A stretch of DNA of 64,000 bases from an uncultured Treponema sp. (lineage in GTDB: Bacteria > Spirochaetota > Spirochaetia > Treponematales > Treponemataceae). Shown here piece by piece: positions 18,024-26,689 of the stretch (within the stretch, counting starts at the first letter, position 1; each line of letters opens with the position of its first letter). Location: assembly GCA_964429975.1 (NCBI GenBank), contig CAYSEA010000001.1:52096-116095 (forward strand). Reading direction: 5' to 3'. The translations under genes were made by a program, and so were the position numbers. The notes beneath the pieces were generated by a model, which was given only the letters and a program-made list of their open reading frames with translations, did no database searches and was not told the DNA's origin.

Positions 18024-18161
18024 GTAACTCTCCTGCTATCGCTTCCGGCCGAAAGTGCCGGTTGCGACGTAAACGTAGTATGGCGCATTACCAAAACCGC
18101 CAATGTAGGGCGATAGTAACAGGTAATTGCCGTTTATGCAAATTTGCCCCATACTGCTTGT

Positions 18162-20390
18162 ATGAGCCAAATCGAAATTGTACCGTCCGATCGGTTCGGA
18201 CTGGGCTTCGTGGACCCGAAATTCCTGAAACCGGGCGAGGACGAATATACGCTTCGGAACGTCCAAAGCGACGCGGCGCGCCGGCAGTGGCGACCGTTAA
18301 GCGTCGATGAGATAGCCCTACTGGAGAAAAACGGAAACACCTGCGCCGATTGGGGAACCTTCCTCGTCGAGGACCCGTTCAATCCCGCATTGTTAAAAAA
18401 CAGCCTTTTTGCGGGACTCGTCCGAGTCGGCGCGCTCACGGCCGAATACCTCAGGTTTCACGATTTTACCGTGCCGGCCGGCATTACCAATAGTAGAGTC
18501 ATTTCCTGCGATATCGGCGCCGACTGCGCCATTCATGATTGCGCGTATTTGTCGCATTACGTTATCGGAAACCGGGTCATCATGAGCCGCATCGACGAGA
18601 TGTCCTGCACCGATCACGCGAAGTTCGGCGAGGGCGTCGTGAAGGAGGGGGAAGACGAGTCGGTGAGGATTTGGCTTGACCCGATGAACGAGGCGGGCGG
18701 GAGATCGGTCCTTGCCTTTGCCGGCATGACCTGCGCCGACGCCTGGCTTTGGGCGACGTATCGCGACGACGCGCCGCTCATGGCGCGTCTCAAGGAACTC
18801 ACGCAAAACGGCGTCGACCTGCGGCGCGGATGGTACGGCACGGTCGGCGACCACTCGATAATCAAAAGCTGTCAGGTCATAAAGGACACGAAGTTCGGGC
18901 CGTCCTCATACGTCAAGGGAGCGAACAAGCTCAAGAATCTCACGATTCACTCGGCGGACGACGAGCCCACGCAAATCGGCGAGGGCGTCGAGCTCGTGAA
19001 CGGGATCATCGGCTACGGGTGCCGCGTCTTTTACGGCGTCAAGGCGGTTCGCTTCGTGCTCGGCAACAACTCGAGCCTCAAGTACGGCGCGCGGCTCATC
19101 CATTCCATACTCGGCGACAACTCGACGGTGTCGTGCTGCGAGGTGCTCAACAACCTCGTGTTTCCCGGGCACGAACAGCATCATAACAATTCCTTCCTTA
19201 TCGCAACGCTTATCATGGGACAGTCGAACATGGCCGCGGGCGCGACCGTCGGCTCGAACCATAACAGCCGCGGCAACGACGGCGAGATCGTCGCCGGGCG
19301 CGGCTTTTGGCCGGGGCTCTCGAGCACGCTCAAGCACAACTGCCGCTTCGCGAGCTATACCCTCCTTACCAAGGGCAGTTATCCCGCAGAGCTCAATATC
19401 ATGTTTCCCTTCTCGATGGTCTACGAGGACCGCAAGAACGACGTCCTGTGCGTGATGCCCGCGTATTACTGGCTCTATAACATGTACGCCCTCGAGCGGA
19501 ACAGCTGGAAATACCGCACGCGCGACCGCCGCGTCCGCGTGACCCAGCGCATCGAGACGGACCATCTCGCGCCTGACACCGCCTTCGAGATGATCGCCTC
19601 GCTCAGGCTTCTCGAGCGGTGGACGGGCAAGGCGTGGTTCGCCCAGCAGGCGGGCGTCGGCGCGCTCGCCTCCGAGGGAACGATTCGCGACGTCTCGTCG
19701 CTCGACGAGGCGACGCTCGAGGCGAAGGGACGCGAGCTCATCGTCAATAACCCCGACGTGGTCAACGGTCTTTCCGTCCGCGGCGAGATGATGGAACGCT
19801 TCACGCGCGAAGTGAGGATCATGAAGGTCGTCAAGGCATGGAACGCGTACCGGCAGATGCTCTTGTACTACGGCGTGCGCACGGTGGCCGAGTATCTCGT
19901 GACGTACGGCATTCACTACGACTACTTTTCCGCGCAAGTCCCCGCCCAGCCGAGCCTCGCGTGGGTAAACATGGGCGGTCAGCTCGTTTCCGAAACCCGC
20001 GTCGACGGACTTCGCGCGGGCATTCGCTCAGGGCTCTTCGGCTCCTGGGACGACATACACGCGCAGTACGAACAGTGGTGGGCGTCGTATCCCCGCGACA
20101 AAGCCGAGAACGCCTACGAGTGCCTGAAGATCGTCGAGGACGCGGATCGCATCCCCGGCGAGCGATGGAACGAGCTGCTTTCTCGCGCGGTCGATATCCG
20201 CGACTATATCGAGAATCAGGTGTACGTCACCAAGAAAAAAGACTACTCGAACGCGTACCGCGGAATCACCTATCGAAACTCGGCCGAGCGCGACGCCGTG
20301 CTCGGGACGGTCGAGGACAACTCTTTCGTGAAGACCGCGCGCGCGGAAACCGCGAAAATCCGCGAGACGTTCGAAAAGGCGAGGGCCTAA
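18162..20390 (+). CDS. DUF4954-like protein with left-handed beta-helix repeats
   Basis: Hexapeptide-like stretches (QIGEGVELVNGIIG, ILGDNSTVSCCEVLNNL, AAGATVGSNHNSR); MPAYYWLYNMYALERNSWK. Confidence 0.75.
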   Translation: MSQIEIVPSDRFGLGFVDPKFLKPGEDEYTLRNVQSDAARRQWRPLSVDEIALLEKNGNTCADWGTFLVEDPFNPALLKNSLFAGLVRVGALTAEYLRFHDFTVPAGITNSRVISCDIGADCAIHDCAYLSHYVIGNRVIMSRIDEMSCTDHAKFGEGVVKEGEDESVRIWLDPMNEAGGRSVLAFAGMTCADAWLWATYRDDAPLMARLKELTQNGVDLRRGWYGTVGDHSIIKSCQVIKDTKFGPSSYVKGANKLKNLTIHSADDEPTQIGEGVELVNGIIGYGCRVFYGVKAVRFVLGNNSSLKYGARLIHSILGDNSTVSCCEVLNNLVFPGHEQHHNNSFLIATLIMGQSNMAAGATVGSNHNSRGNDGEIVAGRGFWPGLSSTLKHNCRFASYTLLTKGSYPAELNIMFPFSMVYEDRKNDVLCVMPAYYWLYNMYALERNSWKYRTRDRRVRVTQRIETDHLAPDTAFEMIASLRLLERWTGKAWFAQQAGVGALASEGTIRDVSSLDEATLEAKGRELIVNNPDVVNGLSVRGEMMERFTREVRIMKVVKAWNAYRQMLLYYGVRTVAEYLVTYGIHYDYFSAQVPAQPSLAWVNMGGQLVSETRVDGLRAGIRSGLFGSWDDIHAQYEQWWASYPRDKAENAYECLKIVEDADRIPGERWNELLSRAVDIRDYIENQVYVTKKKDYSNAYRGITYRNSAERDAVLGTVEDNSFVKTARAETAKIRETFEKARA

Positions 20391-20392
20391 CC

Positions 20393-21331
20393 ATGGCGTA
20401 TGACCTCTCCTCGGGTGACATCGCGCTCACGGTCGAGCGGGCGGGCGAGCGATATCGCTGGTGCCGCTTCGACTGGAACGGGCTTGTTTCGTCGCTCAAG
20501 TTCCGGGGCATCGAGCTTCTCGGGCAAGAGCGCCCGTTGTTATCGAGAAACGACCGGAAGTTCGGACGAGGCCTCCATAACGAGTTTGGAATAAAAAACT
20601 GCGTCGGGTACGACGACTGCGCCGTCGGGGAATGGTTTCCCAAGATCGGCGTCGGTTGGCTTCGGCGCGACGAGAAGCCCTATTTCTTCTTTACCGAGTA
20701 CGAGCGCGAGCCGGTGTCGTTCGACTCCGAGCGCTCGGCCGACGGGACGACGGCGACATTCGTCTGCGAGTCGGAAAACCGGAATGGCTACGCTTATCGC
20801 TATGAAAAGCAAATACGCGCCTCCGAGTCGGAACTCACGGTACGATACCGGCTCGAGAACTCAGGCGAGAAGACGATCGAGACCGATGAGTATACGCACA
20901 ACTTCCTCCGATTCGGCGGTCGCAGGATGGACCGGGGCTATGAGCTTTCGTTTCCCCGGAACCTCGAGCCCGCGCGATTTACGGAGACGGTTAATCCCGA
21001 CGGGATCCTTTTCGTACGGGAAAACCGCGTCGTTATCGCGGGAAAGACGCGCAAGCAATTTTATCTCGGCGGTATTTCTGCGGGCACGGGCGACGCCGTT
21101 CGCGGCGTCGACCGCGACGGCGCGCGCGGCGAATGGACGCTCTCTCACGCGGGTCTCGGGGTCAGCCTCACGGAGCGCGATTCGTTCGCTCCATCCGCGG
21201 TTCATCTTTGGGGATGGAAGGATGTCATAAGCCCTGAGGTTTTTTTTCCGATCCGCGCGGAAAGCGGCGCTGTCGTCGTGTGGGAGCGGTCGTACGAGGC
21301 CGCGTCGCTTCGCGATCGCGCGGATTCGTGA
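20393..21331 (+). CDS. Hypothetical protein, galactose-mutarotase/aldose-epimerase-like fold
   Basis: Starts 2 nt after the upstream stop; RFDWNG and YRLENSGEKTIETDEYTHNF motifs; beta-rich. Confidence 0.6.
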   Translation: MAYDLSSGDIALTVERAGERYRWCRFDWNGLVSSLKFRGIELLGQERPLLSRNDRKFGRGLHNEFGIKNCVGYDDCAVGEWFPKIGVGWLRRDEKPYFFFTEYEREPVSFDSERSADGTTATFVCESENRNGYAYRYEKQIRASESELTVRYRLENSGEKTIETDEYTHNFLRFGGRRMDRGYELSFPRNLEPARFTETVNPDGILFVRENRVVIAGKTRKQFYLGGISAGTGDAVRGVDRDGARGEWTLSHAGLGVSLTERDSFAPSAVHLWGWKDVISPEVFFPIRAESGAVVVWERSYEAASLRDRADS

Positions 21332-21346: not shown

Positions 21347-22102
21347 TTAGAATTTAACATCGAGCGTGAGCGCGTTCTCGATACCCCATCGGTCACGCGC
21401 GAGAGTCGTGTACTGCAAAAGATACCGTAGCTTGAAGCGGTTGGTAATCGTCGCCTGCGCCTTTACCCCCGCCGCCCAGAGCCACTCGTCCCCGTAGGAA
21501 TATTGTTCCAGCGTTCCGATTCCGATCGCCGAGAGAACGAAACGCTTTGACGCCGCGAAGTCGTTTGTCAGCTCGAGAGAGTGAGAGCGAAAATCGTCGG
21601 TGTTATATCCGAAGAAATATTTCGCCCTGAGAGCGTACACGTCCGTGAACTTCCGCTTGAACGATACGTCCGGGATGGCGTAAAAGAGCCCGCTCTCGTG
21701 AAGATAGCCTGCCTTGAATCGCGCACTTGCCGTCGTTTCGTCCGTTTCGCGGGTAATCTCGGCGAAGCCCTCTTGTCCGATTTCCGCGTCTCCGTTCGCC
21801 GACACGCCATAGGAAACGTCGGCGTATACCCCTTCGCGAAAGACCCACACAAAACCCGGTTGAACGAGAAGGCGGCTTTCGTCATTGTTCGTCGTCGCCG
21901 TGAGTCGGAAGGTCGGCAATAGTTTTGGCGAGCGGTTCCAGATGAGCACGTTTTCCGCCCGGACGTAGTACTCGTCTGACCCCGTTACGATTGCGTCAAT
22001 TTCGAAGATATTTCGAAATTGCGCGTCCTCAGCGACTGCGAAAGCATTAACCGCGAGCGTCATCACGATCGCGATGTATAGTGCTTTATTTCTTTTTGCC
22101 AT
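21347..22102 (-). CDS. Outer-membrane beta-barrel protein (YaiO-like)
   Basis: Signal peptide; alternating amphipathic strands; C-terminal Phe; overlaps the GT2 stop. Confidence 0.65.
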   Translation of the reverse strand: MAKRNKALYIAIVMTLAVNAFAVAEDAQFRNIFEIDAIVTGSDEYYVRAENVLIWNRSPKLLPTFRLTATTNNDESRLLVQPGFVWVFREGVYADVSYGVSANGDAEIGQEGFAEITRETDETTASARFKAGYLHESGLFYAIPDVSFKRKFTDVYALRAKYFFGYNTDDFRSHSLELTNDFAASKRFVLSAIGIGTLEQYSYGDEWLWAAGVKAQATITNRFKLRYLLQYTTLARDRWGIENALTLDVKF

Positions 22103-24869
22103 GAGAGTCTCCCTTCGGCGCTTTTTTGAATCCGCGCCGCGTCATCGTTCCCCATCCCGTTTTTCCCCGAAGCATGCCAATGTATCCCGATACCCTAAAA
22201 AACGAAACCAATTGATGAAAGCCCGCCTGTTCCCCGATCGCCGCTACCAGGAGGCCGATGCGGTCGAAGAACGGGAATACGCGTCCGTTCCGTTCGTTTA
22301 TCGCAATCGCGAGAGCGGAAAGCGCGATACCGTAGCCGAGATTTACCCCGACGATGAAGCGAAAGACCGAAGGATTGATCGCACCAGTCGCTATCGCGGA
22401 GATGAAGACGAGAAAGCCGATAAGCTCGAACCAAGGACCGGCGACCTCGAAGATCAGATAGTACGGAAAGCCGACGAGACCGTATGTTCCGTATTGCGGG
22501 TTTCCGATCATCTTCTTATGGAACGAAAGAATCTCGAGGAGGCCCCGCTGCCAGCGTTCCCGCTGTCGCTGAAGGACGGCAAGCGTTGACGGGACCTCGG
22601 TCCAGCAATTTGCCATGCAGTTATACGTGATGCGGTGCGGCCGCCCGGTCTCGCGCATGTTCCGCTCGATTCTGATCACGAGTTCCATGTCCTCGCCGAC
22701 CGTGTCTTTTTCGTATTTTTCCCGACTCGTCAAATACCCGTTAATCGCGAGTACTTCTTCGCGCCTGAATACGCCGAAGGCGCCGGAGATGATCATGAGG
22801 GTTCCGAGCCGGGACCAGCCGAGCCTGCCGGTCATGAACGCGCGAAGGTACTCGATCGTCTGGAACGCGGCCAGCGGGCGCTTTGGGGTTCTCTTCTCGA
22901 CGAGCTGGCCCCGATCGATGACGCAGCCGTTCGCCGGCATGATGTTCCCGCCGGACGCGACCACGGTTTCGTTCGAGTCGAGAAATGCCGCGGTGAGCGC
23001 GAGCAGGGAATCGCGCTCGAGGACGCTGTCCGAGTCGATGGCGAGTATGTATTCGCCCGACGCGGCGTTGATTCCGACGTTGAGCGAGTCGGCCTTTCCC
23101 CCGTTTACCTTATCGATCACGGTAAGCTCCGGAAGGCGCGGGTTTCTGTAAAGTCCCCTCACCGGCTGGGTCTTGAGCTTCTCGTTATAATCGCCGTCCG
23201 TCTTTTCGAGCTGGAACCGGTCGATGAGTATGGCGAGCGTGTCGTCGCGCGAGCCGTCGTTTACCACGACGATCTCGAAGTCTGGGTAGTTTACGTTAAG
23301 GAGAGACTCGACGCTCTCGATGATGCCGACGGCCTCGTTGTACGCGGGAGCGATGATCGAAATCGCCGGGAGCATGTTGCGGTGAAAGAGGAGAGACGTG
23401 TCCTTAATCGCGTATTGCTTGCCCTGCCGTATCGACTCGAGCGACGCCAGGACCGCGAGCGTCAGTCCGATCGCGAGCGTACAGAACGTATACCACCCGA
23501 ACGCTGACAGATACGCGTTCGTCGCGGAGCGAAGCGTCTGCGCGAACGGTTGTCCCTGTGGGGCGAACAGCCGAAAAGCGAGCGCGGTCGCGGGGTATGA
23601 CGCGAGAACGGGAACGAGGAGCGCGACAAAGGGCCAGCGCACAGTGGTTTTTTTCGCGTCGTCGATCCTTCGGTTCGGCACGGGAAGCCGCGAAAGGCCA
23701 AGTTTTTGCAGGATTGCGGGACTAAGATACATTCTGAGCTCGTCGAGGCCTCGCGTGAATGCGGCGATCCCGCCTCGAAGCGCGCGTATGAGTCGGTCTT
23801 CCACCGCTCGATCGCGATTTTTGTTGAGAAACGAAATGAGGTCGCTGACTCTTCCGCGCGAGAGCGCGTTTGCGACGATGCGTCCCGTCACGGCGACGTG
23901 AACGGGATCGTCCTTCAGCAGGAAGTATTCTATTCTGCCCGAGAGAACGTCGCACAGCGTCTCCGCGTCGGGACCGTCGAGGTTCTCTCTCAATACGGCG
24001 ACAAGATACCGGAACACGCGCGGGGATTTTGCTACCATTCGAGAAAGTCCCACGATCGCGTTTGCCCGATCCCGCTCCGCGCCCTCTCTCGCGACCGAAA
24101 GGAGAATGCGCGCGTTCGCCGTGCCCGCCCTATCGCCGAGCGCGAGGCAGGCCCGCCTCGCGATTTCTTCGTCTTTATTGGTAAGGTGATCGGCCGGGTT
24201 AAGGGCGAACGGATACGATTCGACGATGCAATCGAATGCCTTTCTGCGTATTCGATTATCCGTTCCCTCTTCCCGGAAGAGCGCGAGAAGGTATGGATAG
24301 AAGGATTTCGTCGGCGCGATTCGCGAATACTCCACGAGCAGTTCGATAATCTCCCGCTCGCGCCTCGTTTCCAGTTCCGGGAACAGCGCGATGAAGGAGG
24401 ACTGAAAATCGAGGAGAAGTCCCGCGACGCGCATGATGAACGGAATCGATCTCCCGCGGAGGCGATCGATGACGTCGGGCAGGGCCGCCGGCTCCTCAAG
24501 GTTCGCGAGTGCGCGAACGAGAAAGAGCATCACCGGCTCGTCGGTTTCCTGCCGGAGCGCGAGCGCGATCGCGCGCGACGAGCGTTCCGTCGCGATATAG
24601 CCGAGATAGCGCGCGGCGCGACAGCGATCATAGGCTTTGCGCGACGAAAGCTTTCTGATAAAGGGGACGTCCGCGCGGAGGCTTGTCAGAAGCGATGAGA
24701 CGCGCTCCCGCTCTTCCGCTTCCGGCCTCATCGACTGGTTGAGGTCTATCCACGCGTCGATGAAGGCCGTGAGTCCCTTGCCGCGCCTCGGCGTATCGCG
24801 CGCTTCATTCGTCCCCGCCATCGCGGCCAGTAGCTGGCGGTTCGCGCGTCGCATGGTCGATTCTCTCAT
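22086..24869 (-). CDS. HEAT-repeat/processive glycosyltransferase family 2 fusion
   Basis: N-terminal HEAT-like repeats; PAYNE, NDGS, GGKADSLN, DSD, GEDMEL and QRERW motifs; flanking TM helices. Confidence 0.92.
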   Translation of the reverse strand: MRESTMRRANRQLLAAMAGTNEARDTPRRGKGLTAFIDAWIDLNQSMRPEAEERERVSSLLTSLRADVPFIRKLSSRKAYDRCRAARYLGYIATERSSRAIALALRQETDEPVMLFLVRALANLEEPAALPDVIDRLRGRSIPFIMRVAGLLLDFQSSFIALFPELETRREREIIELLVEYSRIAPTKSFYPYLLALFREEGTDNRIRRKAFDCIVESYPFALNPADHLTNKDEEIARRACLALGDRAGTANARILLSVAREGAERDRANAIVGLSRMVAKSPRVFRYLVAVLRENLDGPDAETLCDVLSGRIEYFLLKDDPVHVAVTGRIVANALSRGRVSDLISFLNKNRDRAVEDRLIRALRGGIAAFTRGLDELRMYLSPAILQKLGLSRLPVPNRRIDDAKKTTVRWPFVALLVPVLASYPATALAFRLFAPQGQPFAQTLRSATNAYLSAFGWYTFCTLAIGLTLAVLASLESIRQGKQYAIKDTSLLFHRNMLPAISIIAPAYNEAVGIIESVESLLNVNYPDFEIVVVNDGSRDDTLAILIDRFQLEKTDGDYNEKLKTQPVRGLYRNPRLPELTVIDKVNGGKADSLNVGINAASGEYILAIDSDSVLERDSLLALTAAFLDSNETVVASGGNIMPANGCVIDRGQLVEKRTPKRPLAAFQTIEYLRAFMTGRLGWSRLGTLMIISGAFGVFRREEVLAINGYLTSREKYEKDTVGEDMELVIRIERNMRETGRPHRITYNCMANCWTEVPSTLAVLQRQRERWQRGLLEILSFHKKMIGNPQYGTYGLVGFPYYLIFEVAGPWFELIGFLVFISAIATGAINPSVFRFIVGVNLGYGIALSALAIAINERNGRVFPFFDRIGLLVAAIGEQAGFHQLVSFFRVSGYIGMLRGKTGWGTMTRRGFKKAPKGDSHGKKK

Positions 24870-26653
24870 TCCGACGTCCCGAGGAGGTTGTCGACGAGCC
24901 CGAGTAACTCGGTTTTAGAAAAGGGTTTTTTGAGGAAATGCACGATGCCGAGATCGACCGCGCGCCTGATAAACGATTCGTCCTTTCGCCTCGATACGAG
25001 AATGAACGGAATGTCCCGGCCGTCTCCCGACGCGATCATGCGCTCGCGAAGGTCGAAGCCGCTGACTTTCGGGGCCATCGCCTCGGCGATGATGAGGTCA
25101 GGCGCGCTCTTTCCGTCGAGCGAGAGCGCGTCTCCGCCGTCGTGCGTAGTCATGAGGAAGTATCCGCGTTGCTCGAAGAAAGGCGCGAGAAATCGCACGT
25201 ACGCGTCGTCCGGCTCGATGAGTAAAATTTTCTTGCGCAGGTAGAGGTCCTCTTCCTCGCTTTTTACGCGGTCGCATATTCCTCCGGCTCCTGATTTTTT
25301 CGCCCGGAATAGGCGCGCGAGAAGCGCTTTGTCGACGCTCTCGATCGTCTCGCCGCCGCCCGGCGCGAGTTCGGTGCCATAGAGAATCGCGACTGAAACC
25401 GTCAGTTGCTCTTCTGCGTACACAGAGGCAGCGGCGTGGTTTCTCACCCGCTCGGCCATGGCGCGCGCCTCGGCGGGCGAGAGGTTCTCCGTCACGCACG
25501 CGATGTACGGTCGATCGAGCTTGTAAAACGACCATGAGTCGCCCTCGTGCGCGCTGTTTCTGATGATGTACGTAAGCGCCGCAAGGGCTTCGTCTCCCGC
25601 GACCCTACCGTGAAGCTGGTTGATTTCCTCGAGGTTGTCGACGGAAAAATACAACGCGCCGAATCGTTCTGGCGCAGTATCCGACAGGATCTCGGCGAGA
25701 CGGCCGCGAAAGGCGTCGGCGGAAAGAAGGCCCGTCTTCGTTTCTATCGTTTCTTGCTTCGAAGGCACTTCCGCGGAACGTTCCGCGAGATTCGCGTCCG
25801 GGACGTCGCGGGCGGTTCCTTGCGCGAGTCCTTGCGCGGGAGCGCGCGTCGGCGCGCGCGACGAAAGCGCCTTTGGCACAGTGTCCTCGCCGATCGAGTC
25901 GATGAACGTCCCGCACTCGAGCTCGCGCAGCGTCTGTATGCGCTTTCTTATGTCGTCGACGATGACGCATCCGTGCTGGGGCGCGATGATCGCGATGTCG
26001 AGGGGGATAATGGAATCCATGACCGGCGCGAGCGCCTCATGCGAGGGCATGTAGTGCTCGTGAAACGCCCGCATCCCCGCGTCGTATCCCGGCTCCGCGA
26101 AAAGATCGGGCGAGTTGAGGATGGAACCGAAGATATCGCCCGAAAAGAGCGTATGGCTCGTCGCGTCCCACGTCATGATGCAGCCCGCGCAATGGCAGTA
26201 GGGAGCCGGCATAAAGCGGAGTATCCTTCCCGATCGGAATCGCCATTCCCAGCCGCGCTCGTTTACGATATAGAACTCGTTCGGCGCGCCGTAGTGACGC
26301 GCGAGGAGCGACGCGCGCCAATGCATGGCGACCGGCGCGGTTATGCCGGCCTGGGCGAACAAGGGCAAAGACGCGCAAATGTCCGGGTCTTGATGGTGTG
26401 CGACGATGAGCGAAATCGCTTCCGGCGGAACCAGCGACACAACCGCGCGATACACGCGATCGAAATCTAGAACCGAGCCGGGATCAAGAAGCACCGCCTC
26501 GTTACCGTCGACGATCAGGTACGGGTTGCAGTCCATCGGTACGTCGGGCGCTTCGGGCGTCGTTCCGTCGGTAAAGCGATGGCCGACCCAATAGACGCCT
26601 TCGGCAAGTCGAACGGGAGCCTGAGCGCTGGATAGAGCTCGTTTTTGGTTCAT
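24866..26653 (-). CDS. ODP-like di-iron MBL-fold domain fused to degenerate GGDEF and pseudo-receiver domains
   Basis: HHQDPD, PYCH, SGDIFG and APQHG ligands; GGDEF fold with LDRPY in place of the signature; REC domain with Glu at the acceptor site (LIIAE) and KPF. Confidence 0.85.
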   Translation of the reverse strand: MNQKRALSSAQAPVRLAEGVYWVGHRFTDGTTPEAPDVPMDCNPYLIVDGNEAVLLDPGSVLDFDRVYRAVVSLVPPEAISLIVAHHQDPDICASLPLFAQAGITAPVAMHWRASLLARHYGAPNEFYIVNERGWEWRFRSGRILRFMPAPYCHCAGCIMTWDATSHTLFSGDIFGSILNSPDLFAEPGYDAGMRAFHEHYMPSHEALAPVMDSIIPLDIAIIAPQHGCVIVDDIRKRIQTLRELECGTFIDSIGEDTVPKALSSRAPTRAPAQGLAQGTARDVPDANLAERSAEVPSKQETIETKTGLLSADAFRGRLAEILSDTAPERFGALYFSVDNLEEINQLHGRVAGDEALAALTYIIRNSAHEGDSWSFYKLDRPYIACVTENLSPAEARAMAERVRNHAAASVYAEEQLTVSVAILYGTELAPGGGETIESVDKALLARLFRAKKSGAGGICDRVKSEEEDLYLRKKILLIEPDDAYVRFLAPFFEQRGYFLMTTHDGGDALSLDGKSAPDLIIAEAMAPKVSGFDLRERMIASGDGRDIPFILVSRRKDESFIRRAVDLGIVHFLKKPFSKTELLGLVDNLLGTSE

Positions 26654-26660
26654 TACCCTA

Positions 26661-26689
26661 ATGATAACCCCGCCGGAGCGGAATTGCAA
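26661..26689 (-). promoter_or_regulatory. Sigma70-type promoter of the ODP-GT2 operon (leaderless)
   Basis: TTGCAA-N17-TATCAT-N7-ATG. Confidence 0.65.

Follow-up and report, generated by a model that had tools for sequence, protein, structure and literature searches.

An ODP-type di-iron sensor paired with a HEAT-glycosyltransferase in an uncultured Treponema: a candidate for oxygen-dependent control of a predicted polysaccharide synthase

A stretch of 64,000 nucleotides from an uncultured Treponema sp. (assembly GCA_964429975.1, contig CAYSEA010000001.1, positions 52,096 to 116,095 of the forward strand; hereafter the window) was analyzed with respect to a three-gene operon at positions 21347 to 26689, in which the gene of a sensor with a di-iron domain of the ODP type directly precedes the gene of a membrane glycosyltransferase of family 2 (GT2) fused to HEAT repeats. 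This sensor-synthase arrangement is real, conserved and apparently undescribed, and it is built on a known kind of system. The reading favored here, to which we give a probability of about 0.5, is that the sensor exerts O2/Fe-dependent allosteric control over a synthase of an N-acetylglucosamine (GlcNAc)-type polymer. The following features were deduced, all of them on the minus strand:

26661..26689, minus strand: sigma-70-type promoter TTGCAA-N17-TATCAT, 7 nt before the ATG (scan and relatives)
24866..26653, minus strand: sensor of 595 aa with ODP, linker, degenerate GGDEF and receiver (Pfam and PDB matches, model, motifs, dN/dS)
22086..24869, minus strand: HEAT region fused to a membrane GT2, 927 aa (motifs, about five hydrophobic segments, dN/dS)
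21347..22102, minus strand: predicted 14-stranded barrel of 251 aa with an N-terminal helix (model, fold matches, 108 homologues, dN/dS 0.11)

The sensor and its domains

The ODP domain occupies about residues 12-250 of the sensor and matched Pfam PF19583 with 192 bits (cut-off 27.2, E 1e-56). The closest PDB matches by sequence and by fold were the ODPs of T. maritima and T. denticola, above flavodiiron proteins and beta-lactamases (sequence E-values of 2e-27 and 9e-21 versus 1e-7 for FprA; Foldseek ranks 1-9 all ODP, with TM-scores to the target of 0.78-0.84). Residues H87-Q88-D89-x-D91, H154, D173, Q226-H227 and C247 were aligned with the corresponding motifs in ODPs of known structure; those that bind iron are taken to be the same as in known ODPs. 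The earlier note on this DNA had described a metallo-beta-lactamase (MBL)-fold protein with HQDPD/H/D/H ligands and had taken it for an ODP. All of these ligand motifs were found intact, and the domain grouped with ODPs rather than with flavodiiron proteins or hydrolases in the Pfam, PDB sequence and Foldseek comparisons, so that the MBL-fold domain is, as judged from these matches, an ODP. Its dN/dS of 0.09, estimated like the other ratios given here against a same-genus genome, was the lowest in the operon.

The MBL-fold domain might instead be an enzyme serving the pathway, either an O2/NO scavenger or a hydrolase, as its homology to flavodiiron proteins would allow. This is very improbable, given that Pfam revealed no flavodoxin domain in the sensor, that the HQDPD motif is present and the flavodiiron Glu and second His are absent from it, that the predicted domain is cytoplasmic, sits on signaling folds and is dispensable in many loci, and that the genome carries a separate class A flavodiiron protein. 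Elsewhere, ODP domains were found fused to intact GGEEF cyclases (six proteins), to a nucleotide cyclase and in REC-only proteins, as expected of a mobile sensor. The proteins P0062-P0068, with ODP on intact GGEEF cyclases with RxxD (one of them named from Magnetococcales) and on an adenylate/guanylate cyclase domain, are candidate O2-regulated second-messenger enzymes.

The remainder of the sensor consists of a linker, a degenerate GGDEF domain (residues 306-455, Pfam E 2e-9) with KLDRPY at the position of the motif, and a receiver (residues 476-586, Pfam E 6e-14) with Glu524 in place of the phosphorylated Asp. The earlier account of this gene was right about the ODP part, but the degenerate GGDEF domain and the Asp-to-Glu receiver were not mentioned in it. 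The dN/dS values by region were 0.09 (ODP), 0.56 (linker), 0.17 (GGDEF) and 0.14 (receiver). Neither the GG(D/E)EF catalytic motif nor the RxxD I-site was found in any of the 86 GGDEF domains of the family, and by motif the protein belongs neither to the diguanylate cyclases, nor to the I-site receptors of the PelD/PssE type, nor to the phosphorylatable receivers. Because the GGDEF motifs are absent and the phosphorylated Asp of the receiver is replaced by Glu, the sensor is, on the evidence of its motifs, a protein with an input domain and with no enzymatic or phosphorelay output. Four receiver surface residues, K557, R564, E582 and G585, recurred in 90% or more of 62 sensors, as would be expected of an interface, the partner of which could be the sensor itself. 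In the AlphaFold model the three domains were well folded and residues 249-301 were disordered. Of 83 sensors, 70 have a conserved helical domain of about 90 aa between ODP and the degenerate GGDEF domain, in most cases with a coiled coil after it; this linker domain (e.g. L084:8685-9095) had no Pfam or PDB match.

A different role for the degenerate GGDEF domain is that of a nucleotide receptor, for c-di-GMP or GTP, as in PelD, PssE and YdaK, in which case the synthase would be controlled mainly by c-di-GMP and only modulated by ODP. The host genome has 26 GGDEF matches above the cut-off, the putative ancestor of the sensor has an intact cyclase and I-site, and cyclase or HD-domain genes lie near some loci. 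The Asn and Asp positions which we take to bind guanine are kept in the window's protein, but they are not conserved in most Bacillota members. As the absence of RxxD from all 86 domains (a motif search, which covers canonical binding) and the absence of PilZ from the GT2 also speak against it, this role is considered unlikely.

The synthase and the variable third gene

The second gene encodes, in this order, HEAT repeats, two hydrophobic segments, the GT2 domain and about three further segments. The processive GT2 motifs are complete (D538, D612-x-D614, GED727 and QRERW at 769-773) and HEAT_2 was matched with an E-value of 1.9e-7, which bears out the earlier description of a membrane GT2 with the D,D,D,QxxRW set and an N-terminal HEAT region; the dN/dS was 0.15 for HEAT and 0.11 for GT2. 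The protein is a predicted processive sugar-polymer synthase. Its closest named GT2 family was PgaC/IcaA (111 bits, versus 58 for NodC and 40 for CelA), although the score lies far below the cut-off of 422 of the PgaC/IcaA equivalog TIGR03937. By hhalign, PgaC/IcaA was aligned at 99.7% with 34% identity over 229 columns, and the motifs NxGK, QxxEY, SG, (T/G)ED and QRxRW are common to both. Based on this family ranking and these shared motifs, the product may be a beta-linked N-acetylhexosamine (HexNAc) polymer. No PilZ domain was found in the GT2 by Pfam. An N-terminal membrane anchor is present in 79 of 88 relatives, and the window's GT2 protein is without it.

For the product of the third gene, a 14-stranded barrel with C-terminal Phe and no plug or TPR domain was modeled from 91 homologues (pLDDT 95). 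The N-terminal helix is likely a signal peptide, in agreement with the signal-peptide barrel ending in Phe that had been proposed. The fold resembles FadL and OmpG (Z 21.8 and 19.9) more than PgaA (14.7), and the protein had no Pfam or NCBIfam match. YaiO (PF19413) was tried as its identity and rejected: the window protein gave no match, three of the 91 homologues matched weakly (best E 0.022), and hhalign gave probabilities of 0.1-2.6%. An Atlas feature lead to YaiO (0.95, at rank 20) leaves room for remote kinship.

As in a synthase-dependent secretion system, a processive membrane GT2 and a predicted outer-membrane barrel are encoded in one cluster; no periplasmic TPR protein and no modifying or hydrolyzing enzyme was found in the window's operon, while such genes are present in some relatives, and two deacetylase-domain genes lie elsewhere in the host genome. 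The barrel does not recur in all loci. Among 90 fused loci, 15 matched the spirochaete barrel profile, 43 had a membrane-anchored gene like a glycoside hydrolase, none had both and 32 had neither; the last group includes loci with YaiO or TPR barrels, truncated loci and two-gene loci. The core of the system is the two-gene pair of sensor and synthase, and the barrel is lineage-specific.

The hydrolase-like protein is an unannotated membrane-anchored protein of 700-1100 aa with GRELEP and VAEFG motifs (L060:13038-15143, L084:13027-16194, L164-L172, L134), likely a glycoside hydrolase or transglycosidase of the clan GH-A type. It is the usual partner of this GT2 family in monoderms and in some spirochaetes, was never seen beside the spirochaete barrel and was not found in the window's genome. 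It had no match in PDB and no meaningful one in NCBIfam; one protein matched GH72 (E 2e-5), and the Atlas gave GH5/beta-galactosidase leads. Two further loci (L138:1219-4382 and L139:1347-4528) have a TPR-barrel gene upstream and, downstream of GT2, a 455-aa gene of no known family together with a weak polysaccharide-deacetylase-like gene.

The barrel is likely the outer-membrane exit pore, as far as its model allows. The product could instead be a short glycan retained in the wall or periplasm, or a glycolipid, with the barrel serving other cargo, which is doubtful and in any case compatible with the favored control of the synthase. The barrel is small, lacks TPRs and is nearer to OmpG/FadL than to PgaA or PelB; several loci have the two core genes only, and the 43 fused loci with the hydrolase-like gene and no such barrel include diderm spirochaetes. 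On the other side, nine of the ten barrel genomes among 61 related genomes also carry GT2 and the barrel copy of the tenth is broken (11 of the 20 genomes with GT2 have no barrel), and relatives place TPR or TPR-YaiO barrels at this position, which is the usual signature of synthase-dependent export. The broken copy (G017:C16:21054-21575) has an internal stop, no GT2 was found in its genome, and it is likely the remnant of a lost operon.

Conservation, origin and decay of the pair

When genomes were scanned with the sensor alignment, 533 ODP-like stretches were obtained, the best 80 of which were taken, so that the result refers to the architecture ODP-degenerate GGDEF-receiver and not to ODP generally. 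Of these 80, 11 were cut by contig ends; the other 69, which had at least 300 bases of sequence beyond the sensor, all had HEAT(-GT2) directly behind it. Conversely, a gene of the degenerate GGDEF/receiver type was found upstream of every fused GT2 with upstream sequence, and the adjacency that had been expected was thus confirmed from both sides. The carriers belong to Spirochaetota, many Bacillota lineages, Fibrobacterota, Margulisbacteria and one metagenome-assembled genome (MAG) labeled Patescibacteria, and the closest named loci were spirochaete MAGs. In Clostridium grantii (L091:7974-17905) the pair is duplicated in tandem, the second ODP having changed ligands. A supposed REC-GT2 fusion (P0190) was discarded because the receiver frame is lost halfway, likely a frameshift artefact.

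The same GT2 subfamily with separate HEAT genes was found in alphaproteobacteria, Bacteroidota, Deinococcus, Bacillales, haloarchaea, other spirochaetes and clostridia. The fused HEAT-GT2s form one clade (91 of 91, FastTree 0.889; 32 of 32 in a 48-sequence subset, SH-aLRT 100). The phosphorylation site of the receiver is Asp in nine of ten separate-gene loci and Glu in 82 of 90 fused loci; as the fused loci share their label by kinship, this contrast is one event and not 90 tests. Given that the receivers of the wider family keep Asp while the fused clade has Glu, a di-iron input has apparently taken the place of a phosphorylation input. One of the ten separate-gene clostridial loci inspected carries an Hpt-REC-GGDEF-REC protein with GGDEF, RxxD and Asp intact before HEAT and GT2 (L163:6205-7887, preceded by a kinase-like gene and followed by the separate HEAT and GT2 genes). 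This protein could be aligned to the degenerate GGDEF-receiver part at 99.9% probability and is plausibly of the ancestral regulator type. The simplest history, in any order of its steps, would be that a phosphorelay cyclase-receiver lost catalysis and phosphorylation, that HEAT was fused to GT2 and that ODP became the input.

Several observations weigh against control by the di-iron domain. In the set anchored on ODP the ligands were intact in 59 of 61 loci, but this set is biased, since the search patterns contained the ligands. Thirty spirochaete loci were found via GT2 alone (19 from 60 relatives and 11 from 400 genomes of the phylum, including one intact locus with a split GT2): eight had all ligands, 14 had changed ligands (one of them altered only at H87D/Q88E), one had a frameshifted ODP, four had no ODP and three were cut. 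With only eight of the 27 scorable loci fully intact, the synthase often persists without a di-iron input. In addition, the window's sensor is among the 13 of 83 without the helical domain and coiled coil, and the arrangement of its domains in the model is undefined (pTM 0.48). No sensor-synthase fusion was found among proteins longer than 1042 aa, which is a weak test. A minority of the loci carry the barrel, which in the window is without a TPR partner.

Another possibility is that the degenerate GGDEF with the Glu receiver is a constitutive activator or an assembly subunit, ODP being a passenger or a minor tuner. The ligands were changed, split or absent in 19 of the 27 scorable spirochaete loci, on several branches of the tree, Glu can mimic phospho-Asp, and the coupling helix is absent from the window's protein. 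This possibility is nevertheless rather unlikely, since ODP has the lowest dN/dS in the operon and the ligands are intact in all three fully visible non-centre clostridial loci found via GT2. Moreover, eight of the decayed or split loci lie in one branch and are preceded by a STAS and/or PP2C-HATPase module, as if one input had been exchanged for another; STAS plus PP2C-HATPase partner-switching modules were located directly upstream of decayed sensors at L043:2706-4276, L044:3607-5507, L047:3664-5630 and L039:11819-13824. Among 399 Clostridia genomes (the class of G450), 34 had the GT2 family and five its fused form; of the four non-centre fused loci, three had an intact ODP (duplicates of loci already counted) and one was truncated. 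The loci lacking ODP were placed differently in two trees. Many lineages have thus kept the predicted di-iron input while others do without it; a regulator would explain this pattern better than an essential enzyme would, and the passenger alternative stays in play.

Proposed control, related systems and operon details

Because the GGDEF domain is dead and the receiver carries Glu, protein contact would be the simplest output, which favors the contact proposed in the earlier note, and the sensor likely controls the synthase by direct contact and not through a second messenger. In the proposed mechanism, the ODP site would bind Fe2/O2 as in the Treponema denticola ODP; Glu would free the receiver from kinases, and the receiver would then be masked or set free according to the metal/O2 state of ODP. 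The receiver may act as a docking module, given that receivers are encoded ahead of HEAT and GT2 throughout the wider family, and it would dock on the cytoplasmic HEAT region and thereby gate the synthase, whose beta-linked HexNAc polymer would leave via the barrel in this spirochaete. A complex prediction of HEAT 30-405 with receiver 466-595 (62-row alignments; the degenerate GGDEF, ODP and the GT2 core being left out) scored 0.00 in two runs without controls, which speaks neither for nor against binding.

The ODPs of T. denticola (TDE2498) and T. maritima (PDB 6R9N, 6QNM, 6QRQ, 6QWO) have the same fold and the same HQDPD/H/D/QHG/CG motifs. The T. denticola ODP is reported to be an oxygen sensor that is coupled to TDE2496 and acts on its partner with no covalent link in evidence (PMC7666581). 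The known ODPs stand alone and are coupled to a cytoplasmic chemoreceptor, whereas here ODP is fused to a pseudo-GGDEF and a pseudo-receiver and coupled to a glycan synthase. Coupling to a sensor-less cytoplasmic chemoreceptor was not found at the window locus, where the neighbors of the sensor gene are alr and HEAT-GT2, and a scan of ODP gene neighbors gave one methyl-accepting chemotaxis protein (L079).

Among synthases, those of poly-N-acetylglucosamine, PgaC/IcaA (pgaABCD, icaADBC), are the closest named GT2 family and likewise have an outer-membrane barrel in the operon; the window operon differs in its HEAT fusion and dedicated sensor and in having no PgaD, PgaB or TPR partner. PgaCD is activated directly by c-di-GMP. 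PelD, Listeria PssE and Bacillus YdaK have a degenerate GGDEF beside an exopolysaccharide synthase, and PelD and PssE bind c-di-GMP at the RxxD I-site. As in these systems, a dead GGDEF is encoded beside the synthase here, but RxxD is lacking, and none of the three is known to carry a di-iron or receiver domain. E. coli DosC/DosP, Komagataeibacter AxPDEA1 and the Vibrio hemerythrin-DGC are O2-regulated c-di-GMP enzymes that control matrix through heme or hemerythrin sensors; the link between O2 and polysaccharide is common to all, but those enzymes are active through a diffusible messenger, whereas here the enzyme is dead and the sensor belongs to one synthase.

Clusters of REC/HEAT/GT2/(TPR-)YaiO in Mesorhizobium, Erythrobacter, Emticicia, Bacteroides, Deinococcus, Planococcus and Haloarcula have a GT2 of the same subfamily (34-41% identity), with the HEAT gene adjoining GT2 and a receiver upstream in four of seven records. 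They differ in that HEAT and GT2 are separate, the receiver is stand-alone, mostly with Asp and often near kinases, and ODP is absent. No functional study of them was found in the literature, nor any description of an ODP beside a glycosyltransferase or of REC/HEAT/GT2 clusters, most subscription papers being outside the search. Xanthomonas xag and Zetaproteobacteria sfz, considered as an identity, were set apart at the level of their published descriptions (PMC4643136, PMC8250860, PMC3609779, PMC3826837); for Sfz2, an N-terminus resembling EpsE and a partner resembling BcsB are described, in contrast to the present system (PMC8250860, PMC4643136). Two other reports, PMC9364112 and bioRxiv 10.1101/2025.10.08.681124, had no bearing on the system.

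The host genome (90% complete) carries, besides the class A flavodiiron protein, a desulfoferrodoxin-family gene of the superoxide-reductase type; a search of it for cytochrome bd gave nothing. With the possible source run excluded, half or more of the sequence words were present in six runs; these came from five studies and covered bioreactor, wastewater, manure, freshwater sediment and compost. Cultured carriers of the system are Acetobacterium malicum, A. fimetarium, Clostridium grantii, Anaerobium acetethylicum and Fusibacter ferrireducens, which we take to be non-pathogenic anaerobes. Flocs, granules and biofilms are formed by anaerobes where oxic and anoxic zones meet in digesters, sediments and compost, and to our knowledge the link from oxygen exposure to matrix production in them is poorly known; the pair offers a two-gene, testable candidate for this link in cultured anaerobes. 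Ecology tips the balance slightly towards activation of the synthase on O2 exposure, which would give a protective or adhesive matrix. We propose more tentatively, with doubt outweighing belief, that matrix synthases of anaerobes in several phyla are gated directly by oxygen, a di-iron peroxo sensor having replaced the phosphorelay/cyclase input of an ancestral REC/HEAT/GT2 system and a phosphomimetic receiver, docked on HEAT, acting allosterically, with no messenger, kinase or transcription step, and that HEAT is a general allosteric socket for receivers. If true, ODP would extend beyond chemotaxis, and there would be a way to switch a processive synthase without a messenger. Attention would also be drawn to a widespread HEAT-GT2 family, from proteobacteria to haloarchaea.

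As for the operon itself, the three open reading frames and their coupling by overlap were as proposed: the first junction is an ATGA overlap at 24866-24869, the second a 17-bp overlap at 22086-22102, and both were spanned by contigs from an independent DNA run (X6, another study). Every region was under purifying selection (dN/dS 0.09-0.17) except the sensor linker. In one metatranscriptome, five short operon pieces and one alr piece occurred as contigs, which does not demonstrate transcription. A DUF4954 gene and a 312-aa gene of no known family (18144-21331, plus strand) are convergent to the barrel gene, the stops being 15 bp apart, and no clear terminator was found there.

The promoter-like site is present as proposed. 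As a correction, the sensor gene begins with the ATG at 26653, giving 595 aa, and 26689 belongs to the -35 box. The promoter scan gave six sites versus 3.0 +/- 1.6 expected, so the match by itself is barely above chance. By eye, however, a -35/-10 pair was seen 6-7 nt before the ATG in five of five relatives (four good, one with a weak -10), with a TTG-type -35, a TAnnnT -10 and diverged spacers. Because all the relatives inspected keep this arrangement, the promoter is probably real despite the weak scan, and the transcript is likely leaderless, with the mRNA starting at 26653.

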